A stretch of 64,000 nt of DNA from a phage, in the sequence record PZ386970.1; one strand, written 5' to 3'. The notes beneath the pieces are model-generated. The model was not told the DNA's origin. It ran no database searches and was given only the letters and a program-made list of their open reading frames with translations. Shown in pieces: positions 5,195-35,972 of this stretch (positions are counted from its first letter, which is position 1; each line of letters opens with the position of its first letter). A program made the translations under genes and the position numbers.

Positions 5195-7408
5195 TTATTT
5201 GGCTGCTTCCACAGCCTTCATGAATTTAACGATTTGAGCGACCTGTTCTTTGGAAAGAGTACCACGTCGTCCCATGTATTCTGACACAATATGATAATTG
5301 GTTTCGAATTCAATAACCATTTTATCATCATTATCGTAAGCATTATCTTTAAGCTTATCGAAAATTTTAGCACACAATTCTAACTTCCTGTTCAGGTCTG
5401 TATTAGTAGCACCTGCGAATCGATTCCATCCCCAACGATTATTTACTGTTGAGAGTTTTGCAAAGTCTTTACTGATTTCTTTGTTCTTAGAGCTAAAATA
5501 CTTACTAAGGAAATTAAGCTCTTCATTACGAGTAATATGATTCAAATAAGGCTGTGCTCTACGACTTGGTGATACATACTCATCATAATCTACTTTATCG
5601 ATTAGCATAATATAGTCATTAATTGATTTTTCAAACAAACATTCTACTTCACCGAGTTTACGAACTTTCTTAGCAATCTGTGGGCGGACTACAGTGAACT
5701 CTTTAATACCTGACAAATCGGCAATACGGGTCAAGAAATTAGAGTCATAGTTCAACCAACCTTTATCTGCGTCAAGACATTCAGCATTAGAACGATTACG
5801 AACTATAGCATAACCTTGGATTTCATCAGCTTCACTCGCTGGAATAAAGAGATCTTCTGATACCCAAACATCGTTTTCATTCTTAAAGAACCGATGAGCA
5901 CTTGGGGATTTAGGACGAGGCTCATTAGTCCGTTTCCTGACTTCAATCCATGGCTTAACGATTTGTAAAAGCTCTGAAGTCTTGTACATGTTAATGTTGT
6001 CGCCATCAAAGATAACTTTAAGGCGTTCCAGAAGTTTCATTGCATCTTCGTCTGTAGGGTCAACGAATAGTACGCTTTTACCAAAACCACGTGGAACTTT
6101 ACCTGATAATTTAACCTCGTCTTTAGACATTTCAATTGAATTAAGAGCTCGCATTAATGGAACGCGTCCCTTAACGTCGTCAATAACAATTTCAACGTTT
6201 TTAATGTTAATGCCGATCAGGCTGTTAATTGAAATGGTTGATGATGAGCTACCACTTTCACGAATACGACGAAGACGAGGAGATTCAACGATATCGTATA
6301 CGACGCCAAGATTACACCACTCAGGCCCCATTTTAAAACGTTTGTACAACTCAGAATAAGTTAGTTGTTCTTTAGAGTATTTCAGTGATTCAATATTAGA
6401 CCCAGCCTTTTCCATGTATTTACGAGCGGTATAGCCAAGAGAATCAATTTCGCGGAACACATGACGTGGGTATTTACAATCAATCCATTTCTTAGAATCT
6501 TCAGCGAACAATTTAGCATCGATTTCTGCAACGCGTTTATGGATATTTGCTACTGTACGTTTATCAAATGACAATGCTTCACGAGACGGGGCTACATCTA
6601 GTTCACCCATAGGGAATTTAATATAAGCTGTAGTGCATCGCGTCATCATCCATGTTTGTTCTTTAATAACACTTCCGATTGGATATACAATGCCGCCATA
6701 AACAGCCATGATATTACCACGTTCACCCCATGGAGCTTCCTTGGCTAAATAAACATCATCGAATTCCGGGAAGTATTTGATATCTTTAACACCACGAACT
6801 TCTGCAATATCGCCGAGAGGACGCATAACATAAGCAATTTCGGATGCAAACTTTTCAAAATCTTCCGGGTTAACCGGTACAACTACTTCTACACCCGTAC
6901 GGTCATCAGGACCCATCTTATCTACAAAGGTCGGCTTAATCTGTGGACCACTGTCATCTTGATAAATTACATAACCACGAACTTCACCATTATGATAAGA
7001 CGTAAGGTTAAACGTATCAGTATATGCTAATGGAGCTTTAGAGCCGAGTCCGAATCCACCAATGAAATCGTTACTCGATGTTTTAGTTGAAGCAAAATAT
7101 GAGTTATAAATTCCTGGCTCTTCGTCATTACCACGAATAGTGAAATCACTCATACCCGGACCAAAGTCTCGAACTACAAAACGTGGGTCTAAACGACCTG
7201 GAGCCTGAACAATAAACTTATCAGTGCAACCATTAAGAATTTGCCCATCAATACAGTTTGTGATTAATTCACGTACACAAGCCAATTCTTTGTTTGTATA
7301 AAGGTCATTAGACAAAATCTTATAAACTTTGCTATTGCCTTGAATAGTGAATGCTGTGCTCTTACCGCCTGAACCAATAATCGTTTCTTTAGCCGTTTCG
7401 ATAATCAT
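5195..7408 (-). CDS. rIIA: rIIA protein
   Basis: 737 aa, size and position between 39 and rIIB as in T4. Confidence 0.8.
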   Translation of the reverse strand: MIIETAKETIIGSGGKSTAFTIQGNSKVYKILSNDLYTNKELACVRELITNCIDGQILNGCTDKFIVQAPGRLDPRFVVRDFGPGMSDFTIRGNDEEPGIYNSYFASTKTSSNDFIGGFGLGSKAPLAYTDTFNLTSYHNGEVRGYVIYQDDSGPQIKPTFVDKMGPDDRTGVEVVVPVNPEDFEKFASEIAYVMRPLGDIAEVRGVKDIKYFPEFDDVYLAKEAPWGERGNIMAVYGGIVYPIGSVIKEQTWMMTRCTTAYIKFPMGELDVAPSREALSFDKRTVANIHKRVAEIDAKLFAEDSKKWIDCKYPRHVFREIDSLGYTARKYMEKAGSNIESLKYSKEQLTYSELYKRFKMGPEWCNLGVVYDIVESPRLRRIRESGSSSSTISINSLIGINIKNVEIVIDDVKGRVPLMRALNSIEMSKDEVKLSGKVPRGFGKSVLFVDPTDEDAMKLLERLKVIFDGDNINMYKTSELLQIVKPWIEVRKRTNEPRPKSPSAHRFFKNENDVWVSEDLFIPASEADEIQGYAIVRNRSNAECLDADKGWLNYDSNFLTRIADLSGIKEFTVVRPQIAKKVRKLGEVECLFEKSINDYIMLIDKVDYDEYVSPSRRAQPYLNHITRNEELNFLSKYFSSKNKEISKDFAKLSTVNNRWGWNRFAGATNTDLNRKLELCAKIFDKLKDNAYDNDDKMVIEFETNYHIVSEYMGRRGTLSKEQVAQIVKFMKAVEAAK

Positions 7409-7420
7409 GTTTTTCTCTCA

Positions 7421-7621
7421 TCACAAGTTACGTTTAAAAATTTCTGCTACTTCAAGAAGTTCTTCTTTAGTAGCTGTGTCGGTTTGTATTTTATATCGAA
7501 TTTCCTTAAAGCGTTCTTTAAAGGCTTCAGCTGATTCGATATCAAAAAATCTTTGGATAAGCCGGAATTCCCGGAGCACTGCTTTATCAAAAAGTTCCAA
7601 GTCCACGTTATATGTTCTCAT
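7421..7621 (-). CDS. hypothetical protein (66 aa), rIIA.1 position
   Basis: ATG ORF MRTYNVDL... with RBS; synteny. Confidence 0.5.
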   Translation of the reverse strand: MRTYNVDLELFDKAVLREFRLIQRFFDIESAEAFKERFKEIRYKIQTDTATKEELLEVAEIFKRNL

Positions 7622-7645
7622 AATATTCTCTTCAGTAGATTCCTA

Positions 7646-7698
7646 GGGCACTATTACTAAAGACCATATAATCTATCATCTTATGTGTAATAGTGCCT
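7646..7698 (-). other. perfect 11-bp inverted repeat (GGCACTATTAC / GTAATAGTGCC) with 29-nt AT-rich loop
   Basis: seen directly in sequence, between the glycosyltransferase stop and the next start codon. Confidence 0.6.
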
Positions 7699-7713
7699 CA
7701 GGCGATTCAGGAT

Positions 7714-8814
7714 TTACGCTGTGAAGATTTTATCCCACATCGCAACAACTGCATCTCGATTATACTTCTTCCATACTGCTTCAGCACGTTTAACTCGAGC
7801 TTCGTATGTGTCAGTGAATTCTAATACAGCTTTTGTGTAAAGCGCAACTACTTCTTTCTTAGGAGTAGAAGAATCAATTTCTACACGCACAGTATCTGGG
7901 TCATATTCGAATGTCGCATGAGGATAATCCTTAAAAACTAACTGGATTACAGGGACACCTTTAGAGATGGCTTCAATAGAACTATTCTCTACCGTACCTG
8001 TGTCAGGACACGTATTAATAAGTGCTTTAGCTGTTTTAAGACGTTCCATAATTTCACTGTGTGGAGCATCAATAATAACAGGATATTTAGCTGGTGGTGC
8101 CCATTTACTAGGACAGTATCCTGCACCATTTTCGCCTAGTGCTTTAATCGCTTCAAGAGCAACATCAGTACGACGCATTTTAGTGTCATAACGTTGTGCA
8201 CTAATAATCAGATCAGTCGCCGGAAGAACTTCAGGTTTCTCATTCAAACAAATAACCGGATAATCTTCGGCTTCAAACAACGGATTTGCTCGCCAATAAT
8301 CATAATCAATTTTGTCAGTCAGTCCCGAAGTCATATAACAATATTTACGTTCAAATTCACGGAAGGCTTTAGTAGGAGCATAACTCTTACCACCATTCTT
8401 ATGAATTTGAATAGTCTGGTCCCAAATTTGAACAATGCCACGAGATACCGGCTCAAATGGTGTTGCCATAAAATTCTTATGAACTTTAGAGAGACCTGCG
8501 TCTTTAATTGCCTGAACGGTTAGTTTGGTCGGTTCCATTGTAACAACGAAATCGTACTCATTAATGCCGGCTAGTTCAACAATCTTACGAGCCATAGTAT
8601 AACTCATACCTAGACTGAATTTAGTCAGATGACCAACAGGATGATGATTAACCTTCCAATCACCAAATGTGTCATTATCAAAGCCGATATAATCAATATC
8701 AGCACCGATGGACACAAGATATTTCAACACATTTAAATGTACTGCTTCAAGACCACCTTGTACACGTTCTGGGTTAAATGGGACTGCGCGAGATGGGATA
8801 AACATAACTTTCAT
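7714..8814 (-). CDS. GT-B fold glycosyltransferase (GT4-like), candidate DNA sugar transferase
   Basis: 366 aa; N-terminus MKVMFIPSRAVPFNPERVQGGLEAV is the GT-B donor-scaffold signature; C-terminal E..SIEAISKGVPVI motif; lies between rIIA and 39. Confidence 0.7.
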   Translation of the reverse strand: MKVMFIPSRAVPFNPERVQGGLEAVHLNVLKYLVSIGADIDYIGFDNDTFGDWKVNHHPVGHLTKFSLGMSYTMARKIVELAGINEYDFVVTMEPTKLTVQAIKDAGLSKVHKNFMATPFEPVSRGIVQIWDQTIQIHKNGGKSYAPTKAFREFERKYCYMTSGLTDKIDYDYWRANPLFEAEDYPVICLNEKPEVLPATDLIISAQRYDTKMRRTDVALEAIKALGENGAGYCPSKWAPPAKYPVIIDAPHSEIMERLKTAKALINTCPDTGTVENSSIEAISKGVPVIQLVFKDYPHATFEYDPDTVRVEIDSSTPKKEVVALYTKAVLEFTDTYEARVKRAEAVWKKYNRDAVVAMWDKIFTA

Positions 8815-8821
8815 AATTAAG

Positions 8822-8857
8822 CCTTATTAAAATTAAAATGAAGCTCCCGAAGGAGCT
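8822..8857 (-). terminator. UUCG-tetraloop hairpin (AGCUCC-UUCG-GGAGCU) plus U-rich tail, overlapping the HNH gene stop
   Basis: stem-loop followed by UCAUUUUAAUUUU on minus strand. Confidence 0.45.
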
Positions 8858-9654
8858 TAGGACATCCAACACATTTTATAACCTTTGCAGGTTCTGTTAG
8901 GATTATTTAATGCTTTCAATATATTAGAAGACCCTATACCTAAATACTCCCTTAATTCATAAAGATAGTTAAAATCAATAGTTTCACCTGTTTTTACACT
9001 TGTGATTCTTATAGGCCTTCTTTCATATTTAGATTTATACAACTCTCTAGTCTTAGCTTTAGTTTCTTCTGACCTAGGAGTGTATGGTTTAAATCCTTTT
9101 GTTTTAAATGTTTCCATTCTTGATTTAGTTATTTTATCCTGGTGTTCTTTTGTTTTTACAGGTGCTTTTCGCCCATTCTCCCAAGATAACTTGTTGGCCT
9201 GTATTATTTTATCTATTGCTTCTTGCGTATGAGTTTTACCATAAAATGGATTTAATTCGCCTATACGTTGTGAAGCAATATGTGACATTAATTCTCTTGT
9301 TGCTTTAGTATGTTTTTTACCTTTAAATGGGTTGCCATTTTTAGCAATCCATTCTTTCATAAATCTAGAGTGCTCTTTAGAGAATTCTTGTTTAAGCCAA
9401 TCATAATCTCTAGAATTTCTAGCTCCCATGTAAAAAGCTCTAATAGCCATAAGCGTAGAACGGTTCTTATGAATTTTATAAAGCAATAAATGGGCGATAA
9501 AATGCTCTCTAGGGGTCATTTTAACTAGATTTGATTTAGCATTACTCCCGCCCATAGATTTAGGCAAAATATGGTGAGTTTCAGTATAATTAGGAATAGT
9601 GCTGCGGTTTTTAGCCGCAGCGATAAGTTTATCATAAATTTTACGATAATTCAT
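8857..9654 (-). CDS. HNH homing endonuclease with NUMOD-like repeats (free-standing, Mob-like)
   Basis: HHILPKSMGGSNAKSNLVKMTPREHFIAH HNH motif; repeated NPFYGKxHT motifs; ATG overlaps gene 39 stop (TAATG); track start is an upstream TTG. Confidence 0.75.
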   Translation of the reverse strand: MNYRKIYDKLIAAAKNRSTIPNYTETHHILPKSMGGSNAKSNLVKMTPREHFIAHLLLYKIHKNRSTLMAIRAFYMGARNSRDYDWLKQEFSKEHSRFMKEWIAKNGNPFKGKKHTKATRELMSHIASQRIGELNPFYGKTHTQEAIDKIIQANKLSWENGRKAPVKTKEHQDKITKSRMETFKTKGFKPYTPRSEETKAKTRELYKSKYERRPIRITSVKTGETIDFNYLYELREYLGIGSSNILKALNNPNRTCKGYKMCWMS

Positions 9655-11474
9655 TATCCTAGCATCCAATCTTTACGGAGTTCAGGGTCGTTACCCATGA
9701 GCATTTCAAATAGTTCTTTCCAATTTTCAGGAAGTTTAACTACGTCGTACACAGGGTTTTGAATCATTTCTTTATATTCATCCCGCTGAAGTGAGCCCAA
9801 TCCCTTGATGTATCGAATACTATGCTTAGGCAGTGTATCTTTAGCTTCTTCATACTCAGCTACAGTATAAAACCATTTTTGAGATTTGCCAATTTGTGCA
9901 ATAATTACAGGTGTTTTAACAAAGCGAATACGTCCTTGTTCAAACAATTCAGGCCAATTACTAAAGAAAGCAAGCAAAGCCGGATAGATACTTCCAAGAC
10001 CGTCATGATCGGCATCGGTCATAATTGCAATATTACGATAGTTCGTATTCTCTGCCTTTTCACCAAGAATAAGACCTGTGATAGCACAGATATCAAAGAG
10101 CTCTTTGTTCTTCATCATATCAGCATATGACATACCCCAGCTATTCATCACCTTACCACGTAACGGGAATCCACCATGTAGTTCACGGTCACGAACATCA
10201 ATGAGATAACCAATTGCCGAATCACCTTCTGTTAAGAACAATGTCGTATCTGCATCTTTACCACATTGGTTAGCTTTAATATGCTTATGAACCTTAGCTT
10301 TAGTTGCCTTTTTAGCTGCTTTAGTTTCTGCAGCCTTTTCTGCTGCCAATTTACGAGCTAATGCTGCTTCAACAATAGGCATAATCAAGGCTTCGTTTTT
10401 AAGAAGCGCCTGAGCAATTTTCTTAGCATCTAATTGGATATGATTACGAATATCACCATACGTTGACGTTAAACGTTCTTTAGTCTGAGAATCAAAACGC
10501 ATGTTGCTCATGTCTCTAATAAACATCAACATTGTGAGACATTCTTTAACACGAGCTTTAGTGACTTCAATACCCTTATATTTCTTTTTAATACCCGGCA
10601 AAAGATGTTCGCAGATATCATCCATTACACATTCAACATGATGACCGCCATTTTTAGTATGGATGTTATTAACATAAGTTAAATGACGGAAGCCATCTGG
10701 TGATGTTGTGAATGCTATAGAGACTTTATCATTTTCTTGAATGATGTTATCTTCACCAAATTGTTTAGCAAATCGTTTAAAATTACCATCAACCTTTTTA
10801 CCATTAAATGTGAACTTGATATCAGGATAAACGACTGCCAATGTTTGAAGTCGGTCTAAAGTAATATCTAAATAAATTTGAGATAAATTATGCTCTTCAA
10901 ATGAAGAGAAATCAGGAGTGAAGATTACTTTAGTGCCTTTACCTTTAGATTTCTTAGAAGACCATGATTTGTTTTCCATTCCATTTGAACAGTTAACAGT
11001 GATTTCATTTTCACCATCTGACGTGATGCCTGTAAACAACGTAGAGAAGATATTAGTTAAACTACTCCCGACGCCGTTCATACCACCAGTCTTGCGTTCA
11101 GAATCATCACCAAAGTTACCACCAGCTTTTGGAATAGTCCAGGCTGCTACAGGCCCAGGAATTTGTTCACCTGTTTGGTCGGTAACTAAACCTTGAGGAA
11201 TACCACGTCCGTTATCTTCAACCGAAACTTGATTATTTTTAATTTGCACATCAATTTTATTTGCAAACTTAAATGATGTACGAATAGCTTCATCAACTGA
11301 GTTGTCAATAATCTCATCGATTAATTTAACCAGGCCAGGAACATATTCAACTTGTTGATATTTACCAAACAAAAAACGCTCATGTGCTTCTTTGGCCGAA
11401 GAACCAATATACATACCACTACGTTTCTTAATATGTTCTACATCTGACAATACCTTAATTTCATTTTTAATCAT
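9654..11474 (-). CDS. 39: DNA topoisomerase II large subunit (GyrB-like ATPase + Toprim), unsplit gp39
   Basis: 606 aa; MIKNEIKVLSDVEHIKKRSGMYIGSS N-terminus; Toprim LFLTEGDSA...DADHDG at C-terminus in the same ORF. Confidence 0.9.
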   Translation of the reverse strand: MIKNEIKVLSDVEHIKKRSGMYIGSSAKEAHERFLFGKYQQVEYVPGLVKLIDEIIDNSVDEAIRTSFKFANKIDVQIKNNQVSVEDNGRGIPQGLVTDQTGEQIPGPVAAWTIPKAGGNFGDDSERKTGGMNGVGSSLTNIFSTLFTGITSDGENEITVNCSNGMENKSWSSKKSKGKGTKVIFTPDFSSFEEHNLSQIYLDITLDRLQTLAVVYPDIKFTFNGKKVDGNFKRFAKQFGEDNIIQENDKVSIAFTTSPDGFRHLTYVNNIHTKNGGHHVECVMDDICEHLLPGIKKKYKGIEVTKARVKECLTMLMFIRDMSNMRFDSQTKERLTSTYGDIRNHIQLDAKKIAQALLKNEALIMPIVEAALARKLAAEKAAETKAAKKATKAKVHKHIKANQCGKDADTTLFLTEGDSAIGYLIDVRDRELHGGFPLRGKVMNSWGMSYADMMKNKELFDICAITGLILGEKAENTNYRNIAIMTDADHDGLGSIYPALLAFFSNWPELFEQGRIRFVKTPVIIAQIGKSQKWFYTVAEYEEAKDTLPKHSIRYIKGLGSLQRDEYKEMIQNPVYDVVKLPENWKELFEMLMGNDPELRKDWMLG

Positions 11475-11496
11475 GTTGTCTCCTCGTTATGAAGGT

Positions 11497-11523
11497 ATTC
11501 TATCATCCGAAATCTAAAGCAAA
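11497..11523 (-). promoter_or_regulatory. MotA-type middle promoter upstream of gene 39 (TTGCTTTA box, 12 nt, TAGAAT)
   Basis: minus strand tttTTGCTTTAgatttcggatgaTAGAAT; MotA box consensus (a/t)(a/t)TGCTT(t/c)A. Confidence 0.45.
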
Positions 11524-11538
11524 AAGGGCCGAAGCCCT
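11519..11538 (-). terminator. UUCG-tetraloop hairpin (AGGGC-UUCG-GCCCU) plus U5
   Basis: stem-loop followed by UUUUUG directly after the stop of the upstream gene. Confidence 0.5.
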
Positions 11539-11963
11539 TATTTAAATTTAATTTTCTGAAGTGCATCAATTGCAGCCAAACGCCCTTGTTCACTTTTAAC
11601 TGTAATGACCACATCGCCGGATACGATCACCGAACCATCAACAAATTCTATAGAGCCTTTTTTGAAATCGACAGCTGTATCTGGTTCCGGAACTTCTTCA
11701 AAGAATTTAAATTCTGCACCATAAAGCAGAATATCACCTTGCATACTATGAATAGTTCGGCCATAATCGCCTACGGCTTCTACAGCAATAACCGAAACGC
11801 CGTAACCAATCATCTCTTCCACAATAAAATCTTTGGACAATAAAGTAGTATGCAGATTAGTATTAAGACGTTTACCAGTTGTATTAAGAATTCTCAAGAA
11901 ATTATCTTCTTGACCTTTGATAATACGATATTTCTTACCAACTTCAAAACCTTTAAAAGCCAT
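11538..11963 (-). CDS. hypothetical protein (141 aa)
   Basis: ATG ORF MAFKGFEV...; no family recognised. Confidence 0.5.
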   Translation of the reverse strand: MAFKGFEVGKKYRIIKGQEDNFLRILNTTGKRLNTNLHTTLLSKDFIVEEMIGYGVSVIAVEAVGDYGRTIHSMQGDILLYGAEFKFFEEVPEPDTAVDFKKGSIEFVDGSVIVSGDVVITVKSEQGRLAAIDALQKIKFK

Positions 11964-29402: not shown

Positions 29403-29432
29403 TTTAAAACTTTAAATGGCTCTTAACGAGCC
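29400..29432 (-). terminator. hairpin (GGCUC-GUUAA-GAGCC) with U-rich tail 3' of kinase gene
   Basis: short stem, AU-rich downstream. Confidence 0.3.
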
Positions 29433-29971
29433 CATTTAATGATTTCTGTAATCAAATAATTACGTTCGCTTGCATTAAATCCTATAACTTTGTTAGCACC
29501 ATCATGATTAAGTAATTGATACGTTTGGATTTTGTTATGAATTGCAAACTCTTCAAAATATGAAATGACTGTATTAAAACCGAATGAAGACAAAGTAATA
29601 AGGTCGTCTTCAAAACTTTCAGTCATTTCGTTACGTGTTAAAATAATTGTGAACACATCATGGTTTTGGCAAAGACGAACATAATCCTGTTCATAAACGT
29701 CAAGAACCGAGTCCACATCTTGTCGAATACGTCCATAAACCCAGTTACTAATATATCCACGGTCTAACAGATAAATCTTAGTAGGGTCTAAATAATTCAA
29801 CATCGTTTCGAAACAACCAACTTCATTTCGAGACTTAACATCGAAACGCCCATCAACTGTTCGTTTAGGGAAATCAATCTTTACATATCTTTCACTAATT
29901 TCCATTATGTCATTAATGAAAGTTGTTTTACCAGCATTATCTGGGCCGTCTACTAAAATAATTTTAGCCAT
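29423..29971 (-). CDS. P-loop nucleotide kinase, thymidylate kinase-like
   Basis: Walker A ILVDGPDNAGKTT; downstream DRGY motif resembling the Tmk DRx motif; 182 aa. Confidence 0.55.
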   Translation of the reverse strand: MAKIILVDGPDNAGKTTFINDIMEISERYVKIDFPKRTVDGRFDVKSRNEVGCFETMLNYLDPTKIYLLDRGYISNWVYGRIRQDVDSVLDVYEQDYVRLCQNHDVFTIILTRNEMTESFEDDLITLSSFGFNTVISYFEEFAIHNKIQTYQLLNHDGANKVIGFNASERNYLITEIIKWAR

Positions 29972-29972
29972 T

Positions 29973-30872
29973 TTATTCCTCGATTACGACATCTTCGTAT
30001 TTAGGTATATTATACGGTGAAGAAATTAAAGCATTAAAGTAGATGAACTCACCAAGACCTGGATGGAATACTTCTTCAGGATTTTCGAAATATTGAATTT
30101 TCGGACGTCCTTTAAGAATTTGATAGTACTCAGTTTTAGTTGGATTAAAAATTCGAATCAGCGCTTCTTCAGGATACTTATTTCTGTCGAAACTATTATT
30201 TGGATCAGTTATATAAAGCGGTTGACCTAATTGAATTGCGCATTCAACAACTTGTTCAAAACGATAGCATGGGTCACTAATTCGAAATGGATGAAAAATA
30301 CCATCTAGATGAATAGGAGCCAAATCACCTACAAGACGCTGCATGATGGAAGGACGTATAACTTTCTGAGTTACGATAATCTTATTACCATCTGCACCTG
30401 CGTTAACCAGCACTTCTTTTTGACGTTCATTCAACACAGTAGTTTGAAGTGAACGATTAACTGACAACATATCGGTTTTTAAGAATTCGTCAATATAAAA
30501 ACGTGGTTTATTAGGGTCTGCCGTGATATTGAAATTGAATTCTACATCAAAAGCGCCGTCATATCCAGTGATATCTGTTATTAGAAAATCACAATCATAA
30601 TAAGCAATTAATGAATCAACCACAAATTCATTTTCAGACCAGAAATATTTACGAGTGTTATACGCGTTATCTTTATACCATAATGGAACAAACTTAAATT
30701 CCGGGAAAAGACGTTCACATTCTTTAATATCAGATGCATTACGTGGATATGTAATCACATCACCCGGATTAGCACGGTGCAAATGAAGTTGGAAGTTGCC
30801 ATCCTTAAGGATAGCATACTGTCCAGTTTCATAAGACCGCATACTCAAGATTGGTACGCGGAAAATAGCCAT
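29973..30872 (-). CDS. hypothetical protein (299 aa), cluster member of unknown function
   Basis: TAATG-coupled to the hydroxymethylase-like gene; no family recognised. Confidence 0.5.
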   Translation of the reverse strand: MAIFRVPILSMRSYETGQYAILKDGNFQLHLHRANPGDVITYPRNASDIKECERLFPEFKFVPLWYKDNAYNTRKYFWSENEFVVDSLIAYYDCDFLITDITGYDGAFDVEFNFNITADPNKPRFYIDEFLKTDMLSVNRSLQTTVLNERQKEVLVNAGADGNKIIVTQKVIRPSIMQRLVGDLAPIHLDGIFHPFRISDPCYRFEQVVECAIQLGQPLYITDPNNSFDRNKYPEEALIRIFNPTKTEYYQILKGRPKIQYFENPEEVFHPGLGEFIYFNALISSPYNIPKYEDVVIEE

Positions 30873-31588
30873 TAGTCAAGGAATCCTTTAACATAATCAA
30901 AATCACGTTCAAACACATGGGCACTTACCATGGTATGAGTATAATCACCAACTTCTACACCACATTCGTTAGCGATATAATGAAGTAATTTTCCTTGGAG
31001 ATAAAAATCCAACTGCATAACAACAGCACAATTCTGAGAACGCATATGACAGTGGGTATAAAGCTTACCATCACGAATATAATAAGTCACTGAGTCAGTA
31101 CATGGATATTCAAGCGTTTCGTCCGAATCAAGCAAAGCCTGATCAGAACTTTCTAGAATTTGGAACACAACTCTTCGGGAGTTAGGCTTCTCTTTAAGTT
31201 CTTTTAGAAGAGCTGGTAATTGGGCCGCAATTCGAGGACCATAGAAAGTGTTGAAGTTCGCAGGCAAAGCATCTGATTTTGGTTTAGAAATAAATTTAGC
31301 GACATTAGGATATGCCTTAAACGCTTCTTCTGCATCAGTACCACCAGAAATCATAAACTTCCAGAAATCTTCGGCATATTCATAAGAGATGCGGTTAATA
31401 CGTGGGTCGGTCATTTTGAATGATGATGGAGTGTCAACAACTACTGTCATGGACCCAATTTCATTACAACGTCCAATACGAGAATCAGTTACGAATTCCG
31501 GGTTTTCTAAAATTTCACGATTGACTGCTTTAAATGCGGCTTGAAAATCTGCTGCTTTGATATATTTCATTGTGTTATGTTTTCCCAT
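30872..31588 (-). CDS. 42: thymidylate synthase-family pyrimidine hydroxymethylase, gp42-like (dCMP hydroxymethylase), divergent
   Basis: KPNSRRVVFQI and PCTDSVTYYIRDGKL align with T4 gp42 NPDSRRGIMIY and MCTNTVQYLIRDKKI (catalytic Cys); 238 aa. Confidence 0.7.
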   Translation of the reverse strand: MGKHNTMKYIKAADFQAAFKAVNREILENPEFVTDSRIGRCNEIGSMTVVVDTPSSFKMTDPRINRISYEYAEDFWKFMISGGTDAEEAFKAYPNVAKFISKPKSDALPANFNTFYGPRIAAQLPALLKELKEKPNSRRVVFQILESSDQALLDSDETLEYPCTDSVTYYIRDGKLYTHCHMRSQNCAVVMQLDFYLQGKLLHYIANECGVEVGDYTHTMVSAHVFERDFDYVKGFLD

Positions 31589-31607
31589 GTTTACCTCAAT
31601 ACAATTT

Positions 31608-31633
31608 ATTATATACTCAATTCGTAAAGCTTA
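31608..31633 (-). promoter_or_regulatory. putative middle-type promoter (GCTTTAC box, 11 nt, TATAAT)
   Basis: upstream of the hydroxymethylase-like gene. Confidence 0.3.
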
Positions 31634-31870
31634 TTTGAATTTCTTGGCAATGTTGATATAACGTAAAGCTTCAGAATCTATACTTCCAAGAACACTATGA
31701 AGGAATGCATCAGTGTAGTATTCCAATTGAACAGGTTCTTTAATCACTTTAGCCGCTTTGGTTTCAAACAGGCCCATCAGGGCCTTTTTAAGAATTTGTT
31801 CGTTAGTGTTCAGTTTTATAGTCAAAATCTCTTCATTAAGTTTATAATTAAAAGTTTTTCTAGAAATCAT
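31631..31870 (-). CDS. hypothetical protein (79 aa)
   Basis: ORF only. Confidence 0.4.
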   Translation of the reverse strand: MISRKTFNYKLNEEILTIKLNTNEQILKKALMGLFETKAAKVIKEPVQLEYYTDAFLHSVLGSIDSEALRYINIAKKFK

Positions 31871-33027
31871 TCCGGGTACCTCAAAGCGTCATCAGAGTTA
31901 GTTATATCAATAATAGATATAGAGTTTTCTGCTAACCCGTTTTTAGATAATTGACGTTTATAATACCTTTCACAATATGTACACGTTGACCCACAGATTT
32001 CATTAGCACAATCAAAATCCGGATGTCTGAACCACCTTTTTTCTAAAAAGCCATCTAACAAAGAGGTTTCAATATTTACTGTATGTGAAAACTCAGTCTC
32101 ATTTTCAAGAGTGAAAATAGTCTCTAAAGGCTTCCACAGTTCTAACAAATTACCTTCAAACTTTTCAGAAGCGTATGCTTCAAGAACTTTCAAAATGTAG
32201 TCTGTGCTACCTGTACGTCCTGAAACTTTGAATTGAGTGATACCAATATCATTATAAAGTTTCAAATCTTGTGGACGAACAAAACGAGTTCTCAACCAGT
32301 TAAACGGGTCTGTATCACGAGCTTTAATACAGTGCTGCATAGGATATCCATTTAAGGATTTAGCATCATCAGCTGTAACATCAGTACTATGGAAAATATA
32401 GCAAGAGTCACGATAGCTACAATGTGTTGTATACCCTTTACCAGCATTAGAACAGAACTCATTTACAAGAACTTCAAATATTATATTGTTTTTATTGCAA
32501 AACTCTGCTGCACGCTTCAGGAAAGAAACTGAACGGTTCTTATGAATTCCACAGCAGACCTTTTTGATATTATACTGGTCATGTAAGTATTTGATTTGAG
32601 TTACAGCATCGACATGTAGAATTGTTGAAACTTCAATCTCAATGTCTTTATTGACTTCACGAACAATTTCCATAACAACAGGGTTAGCGATAGTAATACG
32701 CCATACGCCTATTGACCAAAGATACTGAACATAATCCTGAATAGCTTTCTTCTTCCACTCAACTAGTTCTCTTTTTGAACCAGGATTTATCGTGTTGAGT
32801 GTATAGTTAAAGCAAATACCTAATTCGTTACAACGTTTAACATAATCTTCTAACATCTTTTTGTCAACGTCAGGAAGCCTAAAATCAGGTCTGGCTGCTA
32901 CAAAAGCCATTTCTCTTGTAGAGCCGTATACTTCGTTTATCAAGCTATTAGGATAAGTTTTATTGAGCTCTACGATTTTATCAAGAAGAGCTAAATCAAA
33001 ATTCGTTCCGATTTTAAAAGTATTCAT
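31867..33027 (-). CDS. Cys-rich putative metalloenzyme, weak resemblance to peptidase-U32-family Fe-S proteins
   Basis: 386 aa; EVLVNEFCSNAGKGYTTHCSY resembles the U32 signature; additional C-terminal CxxxxCxxxCxxC; N-terminal pattern similar to U32 barrel. Confidence 0.35.
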   Translation of the reverse strand: MNTFKIGTNFDLALLDKIVELNKTYPNSLINEVYGSTREMAFVAARPDFRLPDVDKKMLEDYVKRCNELGICFNYTLNTINPGSKRELVEWKKKAIQDYVQYLWSIGVWRITIANPVVMEIVREVNKDIEIEVSTILHVDAVTQIKYLHDQYNIKKVCCGIHKNRSVSFLKRAAEFCNKNNIIFEVLVNEFCSNAGKGYTTHCSYRDSCYIFHSTDVTADDAKSLNGYPMQHCIKARDTDPFNWLRTRFVRPQDLKLYNDIGITQFKVSGRTGSTDYILKVLEAYASEKFEGNLLELWKPLETIFTLENETEFSHTVNIETSLLDGFLEKRWFRHPDFDCANEICGSTCTYCERYYKRQLSKNGLAENSISIIDITNSDDALRYPE

Positions 33028-33083
33028 TTTTTTGCATCTCGCGTTAATTGATGCGATGGTTTTTGCAGGTCTTACTTAAATTA

Positions 33084-33452
33084 TTATAGATTCGGTTTAT
33101 ATGATTTAAATGTTTCGAATTCGCCTTTATTCATAAGAGCTTTGAATTCGTCAGGACGCATAGCTTTGTCGTCGATAATCCAATCATATACTGGTTTATG
33201 TGTTAGCAAATTATGGTACTTCAAACCAATGTTTTCCAAGTTCTGAATCAGACTTGGGAGAATGTCAATTGCTATACGACCAGGACCTACTGACTTCATA
33301 CCACGAGCAGTGTAAAGCGTTATGGTATGCCCTGCATCATACAGGGCATTAATGGCAGACACCATTTCGACGTCTGGTTTGAAGTTCACGTAATCACGAT
33401 TGTTATTCCACTCTGTTATACAATCATCGACATCAAAACAAAGATTAAGCAT
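33084..33452 (-). CDS. small HAD-like phosphatase (122 aa from MLNLCFDVDD)
   Basis: FDVDDCIT (motif I-like), TARG, DWIIDDK (motif IV-like); resembles KdsC-type phosphatases; motif I imperfect. Confidence 0.35.
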   Translation of the reverse strand: MLNLCFDVDDCITEWNNNRDYVNFKPDVEMVSAINALYDAGHTITLYTARGMKSVGPGRIAIDILPSLIQNLENIGLKYHNLLTHKPVYDWIIDDKAMRPDEFKALMNKGEFETFKSYKPNL

Positions 33453-33469
33453 GTTTTCTACACGGTGCA

Positions 33470-35155
33470 TTAGATTCGTTCCCATTGATGAGTGATATCG
33501 CCACCGATTGGACGATAGGAAACACCAGTTTCTTTATCAGTTAGTACCCATTTACCAGGATTTTTTGTAATCAGAGTAGCCGTTACAGGTTCTGCTACGT
33601 CATAACTAATAGAGCCGTCCTGAAGTACACGGCCCATGTTACGTAATTGCTTAGTCAGAAGTTCCATGCCTTTATAATATGCGGCTACCGCTTTAAGTGG
33701 ATTATTCTTGAAATAACCACCCAATGCAATCCAGATAATTGCCACCGCCAAATGATGATACTCGTTAAACGAACTCATCTTTCCATATTTGTAAACTAAT
33801 GGATTGATGTTAATAGTCACATTACAAGTTGTTTCATCAATAGTAAACTGACCCCAGGTCGGATTAGCATTGAATTCATCATAACCTGAAACAGCATAAA
33901 GCACTTTAGCTTCATCATATAATTTTGGCCCGTAAATCTTGGTTTCACCAAAATATCCACGAGGGTCGATAAACTTGACTTCGCCGTTATCAGTAATCAT
34001 AGTATTACTGAAGTTCGGGTCACCGTGAATAACAGAGTACTGTCCCTGAGAACGGTTATGATAACGAATAAGATGTTCTAAAGCTTGTTTCAACATTGGC
34101 TTCAGACGTCCAATCTTAGTGTAGTTCACGTGTGTGATTTTACCAAATGAATCAATCAATGGCTGAATGCTTTCACAACGATCAATAACTTTCGTATAGA
34201 ACTCTTTAGTGAAATCACGGCGAACAGTTTCAGGACTTACAAAATAAGTGTCTGTGCTGAATTTCAGTGCATCTAAAATTGCATCAACAATTTGTGGACG
34301 AGCAAGACTTGATTTGGATTTAATATATTCAAATGCCGGCTTACCTTTAATGCGTTCCATTTCAAAGTTATTTTCATTAACAGAAACTAACTGAGGAACT
34401 GAATCTGATTTCACTTTCAAATACCACGAAATCTCATCTTTCTGAAGAGCTCGACCCTGTTCGGTTAATGCGAATTTAGTTACAGTTTCTTCACCAATTT
34501 CAACTGCATTAAAACTACGATTAAGTTCACGAACTTCATGAGCTTTTTCAAGTTTAGGCATATCACCTAAATCAATTATATTCATAAGCTCTGATTTATT
34601 GAATGCGCCGCTGTAAAGGAATTCTACGAAATCACGTCCTTTGCAGTATTCATGAATTTCCTCATCGGTAGAACCCATATAGAATTCCCAGTCTTTGAAT
34701 TGATAAATTCCTACAACATTACCGCCTGTTGCACCTACATTAGTGATATTTTCACCGTCGAAATTATATCGACATTCATCACCCTTAACATAGATTGCGT
34801 TAACATTCCAAGACCATGAACCAAAATCAGGAATAATATCGCACCAGTTAACAATTACGTTATGGCCGTCTAAATCTTTGTGTAATTTAGCAAGAGCATA
34901 AGCAGAACCATACGCTTCATCAACTGTACGAATAGTCACATTGAACCCTTCTTGCTCACAATAAGCTCGAACAGTTTCAGCAAATTTTGAATGAACTACT
35001 ACAATAATTTCATCTGCGCCAAGGTCAGAATAAATTGTATATAAATTGCTCAGAATAGTGTCTTGTTTATAGTTAACAAGCACCTTAGGAATATGATGCG
35101 TTATTGGATACAAACGAGTTGCCAGTCCGGCACCAAGAATAACAGCTTTTTTCAT
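33470..35155 (-). CDS. bifunctional sugar-1-phosphate nucleotidyltransferase (N-terminal) / APH-like sugar kinase (C-terminal)
   Basis: N-terminus MKKAVILGAGLATRLYPIT (GxGTRL NTP-transferase motif); C-terminus VIHGDPNFSNTMI...FIDPRG (Brenner HGDxxxxN and DxE/D kinase motifs); 561 aa. Confidence 0.65.
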   Translation of the reverse strand: MKKAVILGAGLATRLYPITHHIPKVLVNYKQDTILSNLYTIYSDLGADEIIVVVHSKFAETVRAYCEQEGFNVTIRTVDEAYGSAYALAKLHKDLDGHNVIVNWCDIIPDFGSWSWNVNAIYVKGDECRYNFDGENITNVGATGGNVVGIYQFKDWEFYMGSTDEEIHEYCKGRDFVEFLYSGAFNKSELMNIIDLGDMPKLEKAHEVRELNRSFNAVEIGEETVTKFALTEQGRALQKDEISWYLKVKSDSVPQLVSVNENNFEMERIKGKPAFEYIKSKSSLARPQIVDAILDALKFSTDTYFVSPETVRRDFTKEFYTKVIDRCESIQPLIDSFGKITHVNYTKIGRLKPMLKQALEHLIRYHNRSQGQYSVIHGDPNFSNTMITDNGEVKFIDPRGYFGETKIYGPKLYDEAKVLYAVSGYDEFNANPTWGQFTIDETTCNVTININPLVYKYGKMSSFNEYHHLAVAIIWIALGGYFKNNPLKAVAAYYKGMELLTKQLRNMGRVLQDGSISYDVAEPVTATLITKNPGKWVLTDKETGVSYRPIGGDITHQWERI

Positions 35156-35183
35156 GTTGTGGTCCTCATTGGTAAGTAGGTGT

Positions 35184-35208
35184 ATTGTACACTATTCTAG
35201 TTAAAGCA
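35184..35208 (-). promoter_or_regulatory. MotA-type middle promoter (TGCTTTA, 12 nt, TACAAT) upstream of the nucleotidyltransferase-kinase gene
   Basis: exact MotA box core with canonical spacing to a TAnnnT -10. Confidence 0.45.
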
Positions 35209-35340
35209 TTCATACTTTGCCTGTAGACCAATCATAATCCATCCAATTACAAGTGTTGGAATCATTACTGGAGCCGTTAAGCTCCAGTAGATAGTCATGA
35301 CAAGCATCAATAGTAAAAGTCCTATTGTTATTGCTTTCAT
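35197..35340 (-). CDS. small membrane protein (47 aa)
   Basis: manual translation MKAITIGLLLLMLVMTIYWSL...; TAATG-coupled to SIS gene stop. Confidence 0.3.
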   Translation of the reverse strand: MKAITIGLLLLMLVMTIYWSLTAPVMIPTLVIGWIMIGLQAKYECFN

Positions 35341-35972
35341 TATTCGCCTCGTAACATGGCACCTAGTGCACCGCCAGGGTGGAACTTAAGGAAGTCATTA
35401 GAGGTAAATCCACGTTCAGAAGAAAGGTTGATAGCAAACGTATCGATAAGCGCTAACAACAATGTAGTGGACATTGTCGGAGCTAAAGAGTTCTCATCGA
35501 CCTCTACCGCGATGCCTGTACAGAAAGAGTAATCAAAAAGGGCTTCATTTTCTTGCGGAATGTCAGGGTTACAATGTAACAGAATCTGTTTAACCTGAGG
35601 ACGAATCATACGAAGATGTTTAGCAACACCTATCATTTCTTCGGTCTTACCAGAACGACTAATATGAATCAACACATCATTAGGCGCAATGAATCCTGCA
35701 TCACCGTGAGAATAATGCCCGGTGTTCAAGTACATACTAGGAATACCTAGTGAAGCAAATGTCTCAGAAGCTTTAGTTGCAATATTAGCATTCTTACCAA
35801 CACCTGTAATAATTACTCGGCTTTCATAATTACTAAGTCCTGGGCGTCGAAGAGTTTCTAGAATAGCATTATAACGAGCAGGGTTTTGACTAATTACTTT
35901 GGCCATAGTAGCCAAAGAAGAAGCTTGTTTTATGATTGCGTCAATAGCGATAGTGATTGGTGTAGTTTTCAT
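35340..35972 (-). CDS. SIS-domain sugar-phosphate isomerase, KdsD/GutQ-like (arabinose-5-phosphate isomerase-like), no CBS domains
   Basis: VIITGVGKNANIATKASETFASLGIPS...HISRSGKTEE and FLKFHPGGALG match the KdsD SIS domain; 210 aa. Confidence 0.7.
   Translation of the reverse strand: MKTTPITIAIDAIIKQASSLATMAKVISQNPARYNAILETLRRPGLSNYESRVIITGVGKNANIATKASETFASLGIPSMYLNTGHYSHGDAGFIAPNDVLIHISRSGKTEEMIGVAKHLRMIRPQVKQILLHCNPDIPQENEALFDYSFCTGIAVEVDENSLAPTMSTTLLLALIDTFAINLSSERGFTSNDFLKFHPGGALGAMLRGE

Follow-up and report, generated by a model that had tools for sequence, protein, structure and literature searches.

The window analysed, a 64,000-nucleotide stretch of phage DNA (PZ386970.1), represents a Mosigvirus (RB69-like) genome. 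The glycosyltransferase (GT) gene considered here lies on the minus strand in the interval between rIIA and gene 39. This interval contains the following features:

5195..7408, minus strand: rIIA, downstream of the GT gene
7421..7621, minus strand: rIIA.1, downstream of the GT gene
7642..7702, minus strand: stem-loop, just past the GT stop codon and before rIIA.1
7714..8814, minus strand: GT gene, with an ATG start and encoding 366 aa in the ORF listing
8815..8858, minus strand: intergenic leader upstream of the GT gene, with a UUCG-tetraloop hairpin, an A/T-rich spacer, an AAGG ribosome-binding site, and then the ATG
8857..9669, minus strand: HNH/MobB-like endonuclease ORF, upstream of the GT gene
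9654..11474, minus strand: gene 39, unsplit, 606 aa, upstream of the GT gene

The original prediction described a 366-residue protein with a GT-B-type N-terminal signature and a C-terminal E...GVPVI motif. Both were confirmed in the translated ORF at 7714..8814, in which the N-terminus is MKVMFIPSRAVPFNPERVQGGLEAV and the C-terminal block is ...TGTVENSSIEAISKGVPVI... The ORF is a genuine gene rather than a chance reading frame, because approximately 156 phage records carry the protein at 95-100% conservation and a 98%-identical protein has been crystallized. At the DNA level, 167 phage records match the 2.3-kb region around the gene at 90-99% identity. Two other E. coli phage records encode a protein that is 100% identical. 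Identity to RB69 ORF003c is 99.2% over 366/366 residues, with three conservative differences: E16D, N85H, and T327I. Judged by its sequence, the gene is the Mosigvirus orthologue of RB69 ORF003c (RB69p003, gp3, NP_861693). PHROG 8302, annotated as 'unknown function', matches the protein end to end (positions 1-366; E = 1.6e-222). The 98%-identical protein is the 'phage HY126 glycosyltransferase', for which an apo structure (PDB 9iqz) and a UDP complex (9ir0) were released in July 2025. Full-length homologues also occur in the Acinetobacter phage DLP3, where gp77 and gp76 share 43% and 41% identity with the protein, respectively. The blocks invariant in the family and the DLP3 pair are GGL, QR-D-R, NTC-GT-E-S-EAI-G-PV, and HAT-E-DP. 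In GenBank, the protein is mostly labelled 'hypothetical' or 'DNA alpha-glucosyltransferase'; in phage AlbertHofmann, it is annotated as a 'putative hmC-arabinosyltransferase'.

The arrangement of rIIA, rIIA.1, the GT gene, and gene 39 is the same in RB69. Indeed, RB69 ORF003c and the HY126 enzyme resemble the present one in length, in their slot between rIIA.1 and gene 39, in the upstream hairpin and ribosome-binding site, and in having the same sugar-nucleotide island elsewhere in the genome. The T4 locus had been said to hold only small ORFs and gene 60, which agrees with its rIIA-39 interval of rIIA.1, gene 60, 60.1, and a defective mobA. The gene is also bracketed, as had been noted, by an HNH endonuclease gene (8857..9669) and an inverted repeat (7642-7702). 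In the leader, the hairpin AAGCTCC-TTCG-GGAGCTT occupies positions 8841-8858; RB69 has a leader of identical sequence, hairpin and ribosome-binding site included, which there immediately follows gene 39. RB69 differs from this phage in having no MobB-like HNH gene between gene 39 and the GT gene, ORF003c following gene 39 after 42 bp. The HNH gene is covered by only about 20 of the 167 related records, and its 115 N-terminal residues are 44% identical to T4 MobB. The insertion junctions have TGGATG in common, and the recoded gp39 ends in DWMLG-stop in place of EWMS-stop. On this comparison of related genomes, the HNH homing-endonuclease gene is a recent insertion between gene 39 and the GT gene.

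The arms of the inverted repeat, 7642-7657 and 7687-7702, are each 16 nt long and 88% complementary. As RNA, the stem-loop has a predicted folding energy of -28.5 kcal/mol (z = -5.1 versus shuffled sequences), and it is conserved at 98-99% in RB69 and JK45. Comparison with these two phages revealed no covariation, and the single arm difference in RB69 was not compensatory. A canonical intrinsic terminator was rejected based on the lack of a U-tail; the stem-loop probably serves the structure or stability of the mRNA. A scan for sigma-70-like promoters found 12 matches, no more than the 15.6 expected from shuffled sequences, and assigned no promoter to the GT gene itself. The region has a single MotA-box-like middle promoter, near 11523 and upstream of gene 39; the GT gene therefore probably shares a transcript with the topoisomerase gene.

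The protein matched no Pfam family, even at E <= 10 and with PF00534 (Glycos_transf_1) and PF13439 (Glyco_transf_4) included, and no NCBIfam model. Thus, its classification as a GT rests on structure and not on curated HMMs. A family profile searched against 1.84 billion representative proteins yielded 12 matches, the weakest of which was a protein containing Glyco_transf_4 and Glycos_transf_1 (E = 1.5e-4). Profile searches against GT families, suggested as a check in the original prediction, were accordingly negative for direct matches and positive for this indirect link. The family is extremely narrow, forming five clusters in a database of 5.8 billion proteins.

An AlphaFold2 model based on a six-sequence alignment was used for fold class only, as its quality was moderate (pLDDT 62, with residues 115-188 poorly predicted) and its TM score against the real structure was 0.67. 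In Foldseek searches, this moderate model (pLDDT 62) matched BshA, PimA, and WaaG with a probability of 1.00, with two Rossmann-like domains and an inter-domain cleft. The nearest structural neighbours are GT4 enzymes that act on lipids, LPS, and small molecules (PimA, WaaG, BshA, tetrahydrobiopterin glucosyltransferase, and GtfA), and the nearest solved relatives of the scaffold are mostly retaining GT4, GT5, and GT20 enzymes. Together, the 98%-identical PDB structures, the Foldseek neighbours, and the profile link bear out the GT-B assignment. With respect to the E-X7-E motif of the C-terminal domain, all family members have the second glutamate, E281 (IEAISKGVPVI). Eight residues before it they share a glycine, G273, and an equally invariant E276 gives an E-X4-E spacing instead. 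The enzyme is most likely a soluble, GT4-like, UDP-sugar-dependent GT of the GT-B type. That it binds a UDP-sugar donor is suggested by proxy, through the UDP complex of the 98%-identical protein (9ir0) and the use of UDP-Araf by the DLP3 homologues.

Bacterial GT4-type retaining GT-B enzymes (PimA, BshA, WaaG, MshA, and GtfA) share with the phage enzyme the two-Rossmann GT-B fold, the N-terminal glycine loop, and the C-terminal E...GVPVI nucleotide-sugar motif. The two differ in sequence, at about 10-14% identity, and in acceptor, which for the phage enzyme would be a DNA-bound sugar. Since the product assigned to the phage enzyme has a beta linkage, the two may also differ in stereochemical mechanism.

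The protein had been described as showing no resemblance to T4 Agt or Bgt, and none emerged. Using hhalign, the family alignment, which is shallow (Neff 1.8), showed no sequence similarity to T4 a-gt (E = 0.1) or b-gt (E = 0.39), and neither T4 enzyme was among the top structural matches. Because the alignment is so shallow, this null result does not contradict the deep-profile HHpred link of 2018, in which Thomas et al. connected ORF003c remotely to 1XV5 (PMC6024577). In outline, T4 a-gt (CAZy GT72) and b-gt (GT63) are similar to the phage enzyme: they have a GT-B fold, use a UDP-sugar donor, and act after replication on duplex phage DNA, where they glycosylate a hydroxyl of a modified cytosine. 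They also share its anti-restriction purpose. The T4 enzymes use glucose, whereas the sugar of the present pathway is Araf, and their acceptor is hmC, whereas the assigned acceptor here is a sugar on 5-hydroxycytosine. A closer functional analogue is presumably the beta-alpha-glucosyltransferase of T2 and T6, which builds a disaccharide.

The sugar-nucleotide island lies at 29423..35972. Its distance from the GT gene, 20.6 kb, is in line with the approximately 21 kb given in the original prediction. The island contains:

29423..29971, minus strand: thymidylate-kinase-like nucleotide kinase, orthologue of RB69 gp45 (97.8% identical to RB69p045)
29973..30872, minus strand: candidate for the first arabinosyltransferase (base-proximal, alpha), 299 aa, orthologous to RB69 gp46:47 and DLP3 gp79
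30872..31588, minus strand: thymidylate-synthase homologue, the 5-hydroxy-dCMP synthase (Pfam Thymidylat_synt; 99.6% identical to RB69 gp48)
31867..33027, minus strand: Peptidase-U32-family protein, orthologue of RB69 gp50 (Pfam PF01136; 99.2% identical to RB69p050)
33084..33485, minus strand: HAD-like phosphatase, orthologue of RB69 gp51 and analogue of HY126 AfhF (98.4% identical to RB69p051)
33470..35155, minus strand: bifunctional Ara-5-P kinase and UDP-arabinose pyrophosphorylase, 561 aa, orthologue of RB69 ORF53_52c and analogue of HY126 AfhE (Pfam NTP_transferase and weak kinase-like matches)
35340..35972, minus strand: arabinose-5-phosphate isomerase, orthologue of RB69 gp55 (Pfam SIS; 98.6% identical to RB69p055)

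The island is intact and its proteins are about 98-99.9% identical to those of RB69. Specifically, the 299-aa protein is approximately 99% identical to both halves of the frameshifted RB69 ORF046c/047c, and the 561-aa ORF is 98-99.7% identical to the halves of the frameshifted ORF052c/053c. A Pfam search of the 299-aa protein returned no match, and the base-proximal transferase role of proteins of this type is a proposal (PMC13326640). The ORF53_52c/AfhE type has been assigned its kinase/pyrophosphorylase role (PMC6024577, PMC13326640), and phosphatases of the gp51/AfhF type convert Araf-1,5-P2 to Araf-1-P (PMC13326640, citing He et al. 2026). Since the island is intact and near-identical to that of RB69, the chemistry of RB69 is transferable to this phage. 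The transferase and the donor pathway had been placed in separate transcription units; this stands for the second transferase only, as the candidate first transferase, the 299-aa protein, lies inside the island. He et al. 2026 and Mahler et al. 2025 reportedly deal with the enzymology of the pathway (AfhE and AfhF) and with the phenotype of an Aat deletion.

Arabinose was found in RB69 DNA by Thomas et al. in 2018, who used custom HMMs and proposed that the arabinosyltransferase is ORF003c, located 'between rIIA and gene 39'; it was the sole GT candidate found in RB69 at the time (PMC6024577). Its reassignment as arabinosyltransferase 2 followed in 2026, so the DNA-transferase gene of the original prediction is not new. 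Using MS and NMR, Lee et al. 2026 (NAR) identified the modified base as beta-D-Araf-(1-3)-alpha-D-Araf-5-hydroxy-2'-deoxycytidine, which has no methylene bridge and is not an hmC derivative; both mono- and di-arabinosylated 5-hydroxy-dC were present in RB69 DNA (PMC13326640). Mosigvirus NP and Bas46/Bas47 are also di-arabinosylated. The thymidylate-synthase homologue of RB69, gp48, was demonstrated experimentally to make 5-hydroxy-dCMP (PMC13326640). The original prediction had named hmC as the acceptor, which does not agree with these data: the enzyme in the gene-42 position of this phage is 99.6% identical to gp48, and RB69 DNA contains arabinosyl-5-hydroxycytosine (PMC13326640).

The same study gives RB69p003 the name 'beta-arabinosyltransferase 2' and calls RB69 gp46:47 'arabinosyltransferase 1', the role of gp3 as the second transferase being an explicit proposal (PMC13326640). 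DLP3 gp76 and gp77 together added a third arabinose to arabinosylated RB69 DNA from UDP-Araf in vitro, and individual GTs had no activity on plain 5hoC DNA (PMC13326640). The DLP3 proteins, designated beta-arabinosyltransferases 2/3, resemble the present enzyme in being full-length homologues with the invariant blocks, and the pair is experimentally DNA-directed and UDP-Araf-dependent. They differ in that DLP3 has two tandem paralogues inside its island and Mosigvirus one copy displaced by 20 kb; moreover, the pair makes the third, beta-(1-5) addition, whereas the one assigned to the Mosigvirus enzyme is the second, with a beta-(1-3) linkage. As the orthologue of RB69 ORF003c and a homologue of enzymes that glycosylate DNA in vitro (PMC13326640), the gene almost certainly encodes a DNA sugar transferase of the phage hypermodification pathway, as originally predicted.

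The designation of this gene as the sole transferase did not hold: the unrelated 299-aa protein (29973..30872), encoded beside the thymidylate-synthase homologue, is the proposed base-proximal enzyme. The two candidates showed no sequence similarity using BLASTP (E = 1.6), and a paralogous relationship was rejected. Homologues of the 299-aa protein occur in 349 phage records, from phages of Escherichia, Acinetobacter, Klebsiella, Serratia, Enterobacter, Proteus, Yersinia, and Shewanella. The GT family is found in 212 phage records only: approximately 156 of Mosigvirus, with one copy each, and approximately 56 of the Acinetobacter type, with the family in two places each. The two copies lie side by side in DLP1 and DLP3, inside the island and directly after the kinase gene. 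A 'Tegunavirus' record was considered as a third lineage and rejected, as identity bands placed its protein with the Acinetobacter type, at least 80% identical to DLP1 gp74.

Every lineage found with the GT family, Mosigvirus and the Acinetobacter phages, also has the arabinosylation island. Conversely, the family is absent from approximately 137 of the 349 records with the island. Among these is the Shewanella phage Thanatos, whose DNA is mono-pentosylated and which has a homologue of the 299-aa protein (TH1_063) and zero members of the GT family. Thanatos TH1_065 (378 aa), which follows the kinase gene in the slot occupied by the GT family in Acinetobacter phages, was evaluated as a diverged member and rejected: it is a U32-family protein and gave no hhalign signal. 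The copy number of the GT family is therefore one lower than the number of arabinoses: zero in the mono-glycosylated phage (Thanatos), one in the di-arabinosylated phages (Mosigvirus), and two in the tri-arabinosylated phages (Acinetobacter phages). Such tracking of the extra sugars is expected of a chain-extending, and not of a base-proximal, transferase.

Based on these data, we estimate a probability of approximately 0.78 that the enzyme is the second of two DNA arabinosyltransferases, forming a beta-(1-3) linkage, in a 5-hydroxycytosine-arabinose pathway. In this pathway, the island enzymes would make 5-hydroxy-dCTP and UDP-D-arabinofuranose, and 5-hydroxy-dCTP would be incorporated in place of dC. 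The 299-aa island enzyme would then place the first, alpha-linked Araf on the 5-hydroxyl of cytosine. After replication, the GT would use UDP-Araf to attach another Araf at O3 of the first sugar, yielding the beta-D-Araf-(1-3)-alpha-D-Araf-5-hydroxycytosine of RB69-type DNA. The longer glycan would widen protection against DNA-targeting host defences. That the GT itself catalyses the second addition, and with a beta-(1-3) linkage, we infer from the orthology, the phyletic pattern, and the DLP3 activities. The proposed identity of the 299-aa protein as the first transferase is less secure because, in the Thanatos study, TH1_063 showed UDP-xylose pyrophosphorylase activity and no transferase activity.

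The same observation bears on a reading in which the GT is the primary, base-proximal transferase and adds the first arabinose directly to the modified cytosine, as hypothesized in 2018 and, with 5-hydroxycytosine in place of hmC, in the original prediction. ORF003c was then the only GT candidate in RB69 (PMC6024577), the annotation in AlbertHofmann names an hmC-arabinosyltransferase, and the 299-aa alternative matches nothing in Pfam and has a Thanatos homologue that acted in vitro as a UDP-xylose pyrophosphorylase without transfer to DNA. We nevertheless consider a base-proximal role quite improbable, given that the family is missing from so many island-carrying records, pentosylated Thanatos included, and that its copy number (0, 1, 2) follows the extra sugars and not the presence of the modification. 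Moreover, single DLP3 GTs were inactive on 5hoC DNA whereas gp76 and gp77 extended arabinosylated DNA (PMC13326640), and the opposite anomeric configurations of the first and second sugars fit two enzymes.

Just as improbable is a processive or bifunctional GT that installs both Mosigvirus arabinoses, the 299-aa protein being employed otherwise, for example in sugar-nucleotide metabolism. The pyrophosphorylase activity of TH1_063 is compatible with such employment, and the need for two DLP3 paralogues in a single addition means that a rule of one enzyme per sugar is not strictly established. However, the two linkages differ, alpha to the base versus beta-(1-3) between the sugars, phages that lack the GT family are still glycosylated, and a dedicated bifunctional kinase/pyrophosphorylase is already encoded in the island.

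A non-DNA acceptor (lipid, LPS, small molecule, or protein), with the rIIA membrane-protection neighbours reflecting a cell-envelope function, would suit the top structural neighbours and the 20.6 kb between the Mosigvirus gene and the sugar island, but is highly improbable for a family this narrow (12 matches among 1.84 billion representative proteins) that is accompanied by the arabinosylation island in all lineages found, that sits inside the island directly after the kinase gene in Acinetobacter phages, and that has DLP3 members modifying DNA in vitro (PMC13326640). Classification with polysaccharide or LPS GTs had been named in the original prediction as evidence against a DNA role, and the nearest folds (PimA, WaaG, and BshA), taken literally, count that way; this likeness of fold carries less weight than the gene context and the biochemical data on the homologues.

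For the second arabinosyltransferase that we favour, the stereochemistry deserves comment. The fold neighbours are mostly retaining GT4-type enzymes, while the assigned second linkage is beta and the first sugar is alpha. As the two sugars are opposite anomers derived from a single donor, UDP-Araf, one of the phage transferases must invert and the other retain. It is conceivable, if unlikely, that the GT is an inverting, mechanistically atypical GT4-like enzyme that recognizes a sugar displayed in the major groove of DNA.

The gene, its family, its likely role, and a crystal structure are already public: the gene has been a candidate since 2018, structures have been available since 2025, and the chemistry and pathway were revised in 2025-2026. 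The value of the present assignment is thus mainly for annotation, the GenBank labels being mostly 'hypothetical' or 'DNA alpha-glucosyltransferase'. The textbook assumption of hmC in T4-like phages is wrong for Mosigvirus. The set of restriction, CRISPR, and type IV systems that a Mosigvirus escapes is influenced by whether its cytosines bear a single arabinose or two, and the number of arabinoses is relevant to phage therapy and to the sequencing or engineering of Mosigvirus phages.

The locus around the glycosyltransferase gene (GT) comprises the following features:

9654-11474, minus strand: gene 39, a single 606-aa ORF
8857-9669, minus strand: a free-standing gene for a MobB-like HNH homing endonuclease, present as an insertion precisely between gene 39 and GT
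7642-7702, minus strand: a stable hairpin between GT and rIIA.1

Gene 39 corresponds to a fusion of T4 genes 39 and 60. It is likewise fused in RB69, whereas the T4 gene is split. Approximately 50 bp upstream of its start, at about 11523 on the minus strand, lies a MotA-box-like middle-promoter match (TTTGCTTTA-N12-TAGAAT), the only such match within 7300-11700. A GC-rich bidirectional hairpin occurs at 11524-11539.

RB69 lacks the HNH gene, as do most Mosigvirus records. Its two junctions (near 9651-9669 and 8857-8870) each carry the hexamer TGGATG. The final codons of gp39 have been recoded, reading DWMLG* in the window versus EWMS* in RB69. The true start of the HNH gene is probably the ATG near 9651 (MNYRKIY...), which forms a TAATG stop/start overlap, rather than the listed TTG at 9669. 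In T4 the corresponding position, following gene 39, is occupied by mobA, a defective HNH gene.

The sugar-island genes were compared with the RB69 reference record. The 299-aa candidate first arabinosyltransferase (29973-30872) and the 561-aa kinase/pyrophosphorylase (33470-35155) are each encoded by an intact ORF in the window; the RB69 record is split at these positions, as 046c/047c and 052c/053c, respectively. Published statements attribute these splits to sequencing errors, and the intact window ORFs agree with that account. The 299-aa protein has the following homologue in Shewanella phage Thanatos-1:

4995-5897 of the Thanatos-1 sequence compared: TH1_063

The two published descriptions of its role are in conflict. 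Lee et al. 2026 (PMC13326640) took TH1_063 to be the only ara-GT that Thanatos has. For this protein, the Thanatos study itself (PMC12838424) reported UDP-xylose pyrophosphorylase activity, with no detectable transfer to DNA.

Variants of GT were found in other phages. Shigella phage JK45 (MK962757, 1501-3196) contains the full gene and a second copy of its final 137 codons, each followed by an identical 92-nt spacer with a hairpin. Either about 500 bp has been duplicated in tandem, or the arrangement is an artefact of assembly. In phage LH01, GT is in two pieces, possibly reflecting a frameshift. An Acinetobacter-type copy of the GT family, at least 80% identical to DLP1 gp74, was present in a record whose organism name begins with 'Tegunavirus'; the taxonomy of this record may be mislabelled.

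The 7642-7702 hairpin is near-invariant across RB69 and JK45. Its sole change in RB69 disrupts a base pair without compensation. The hairpin may function in mRNA stability, processing or attenuation.
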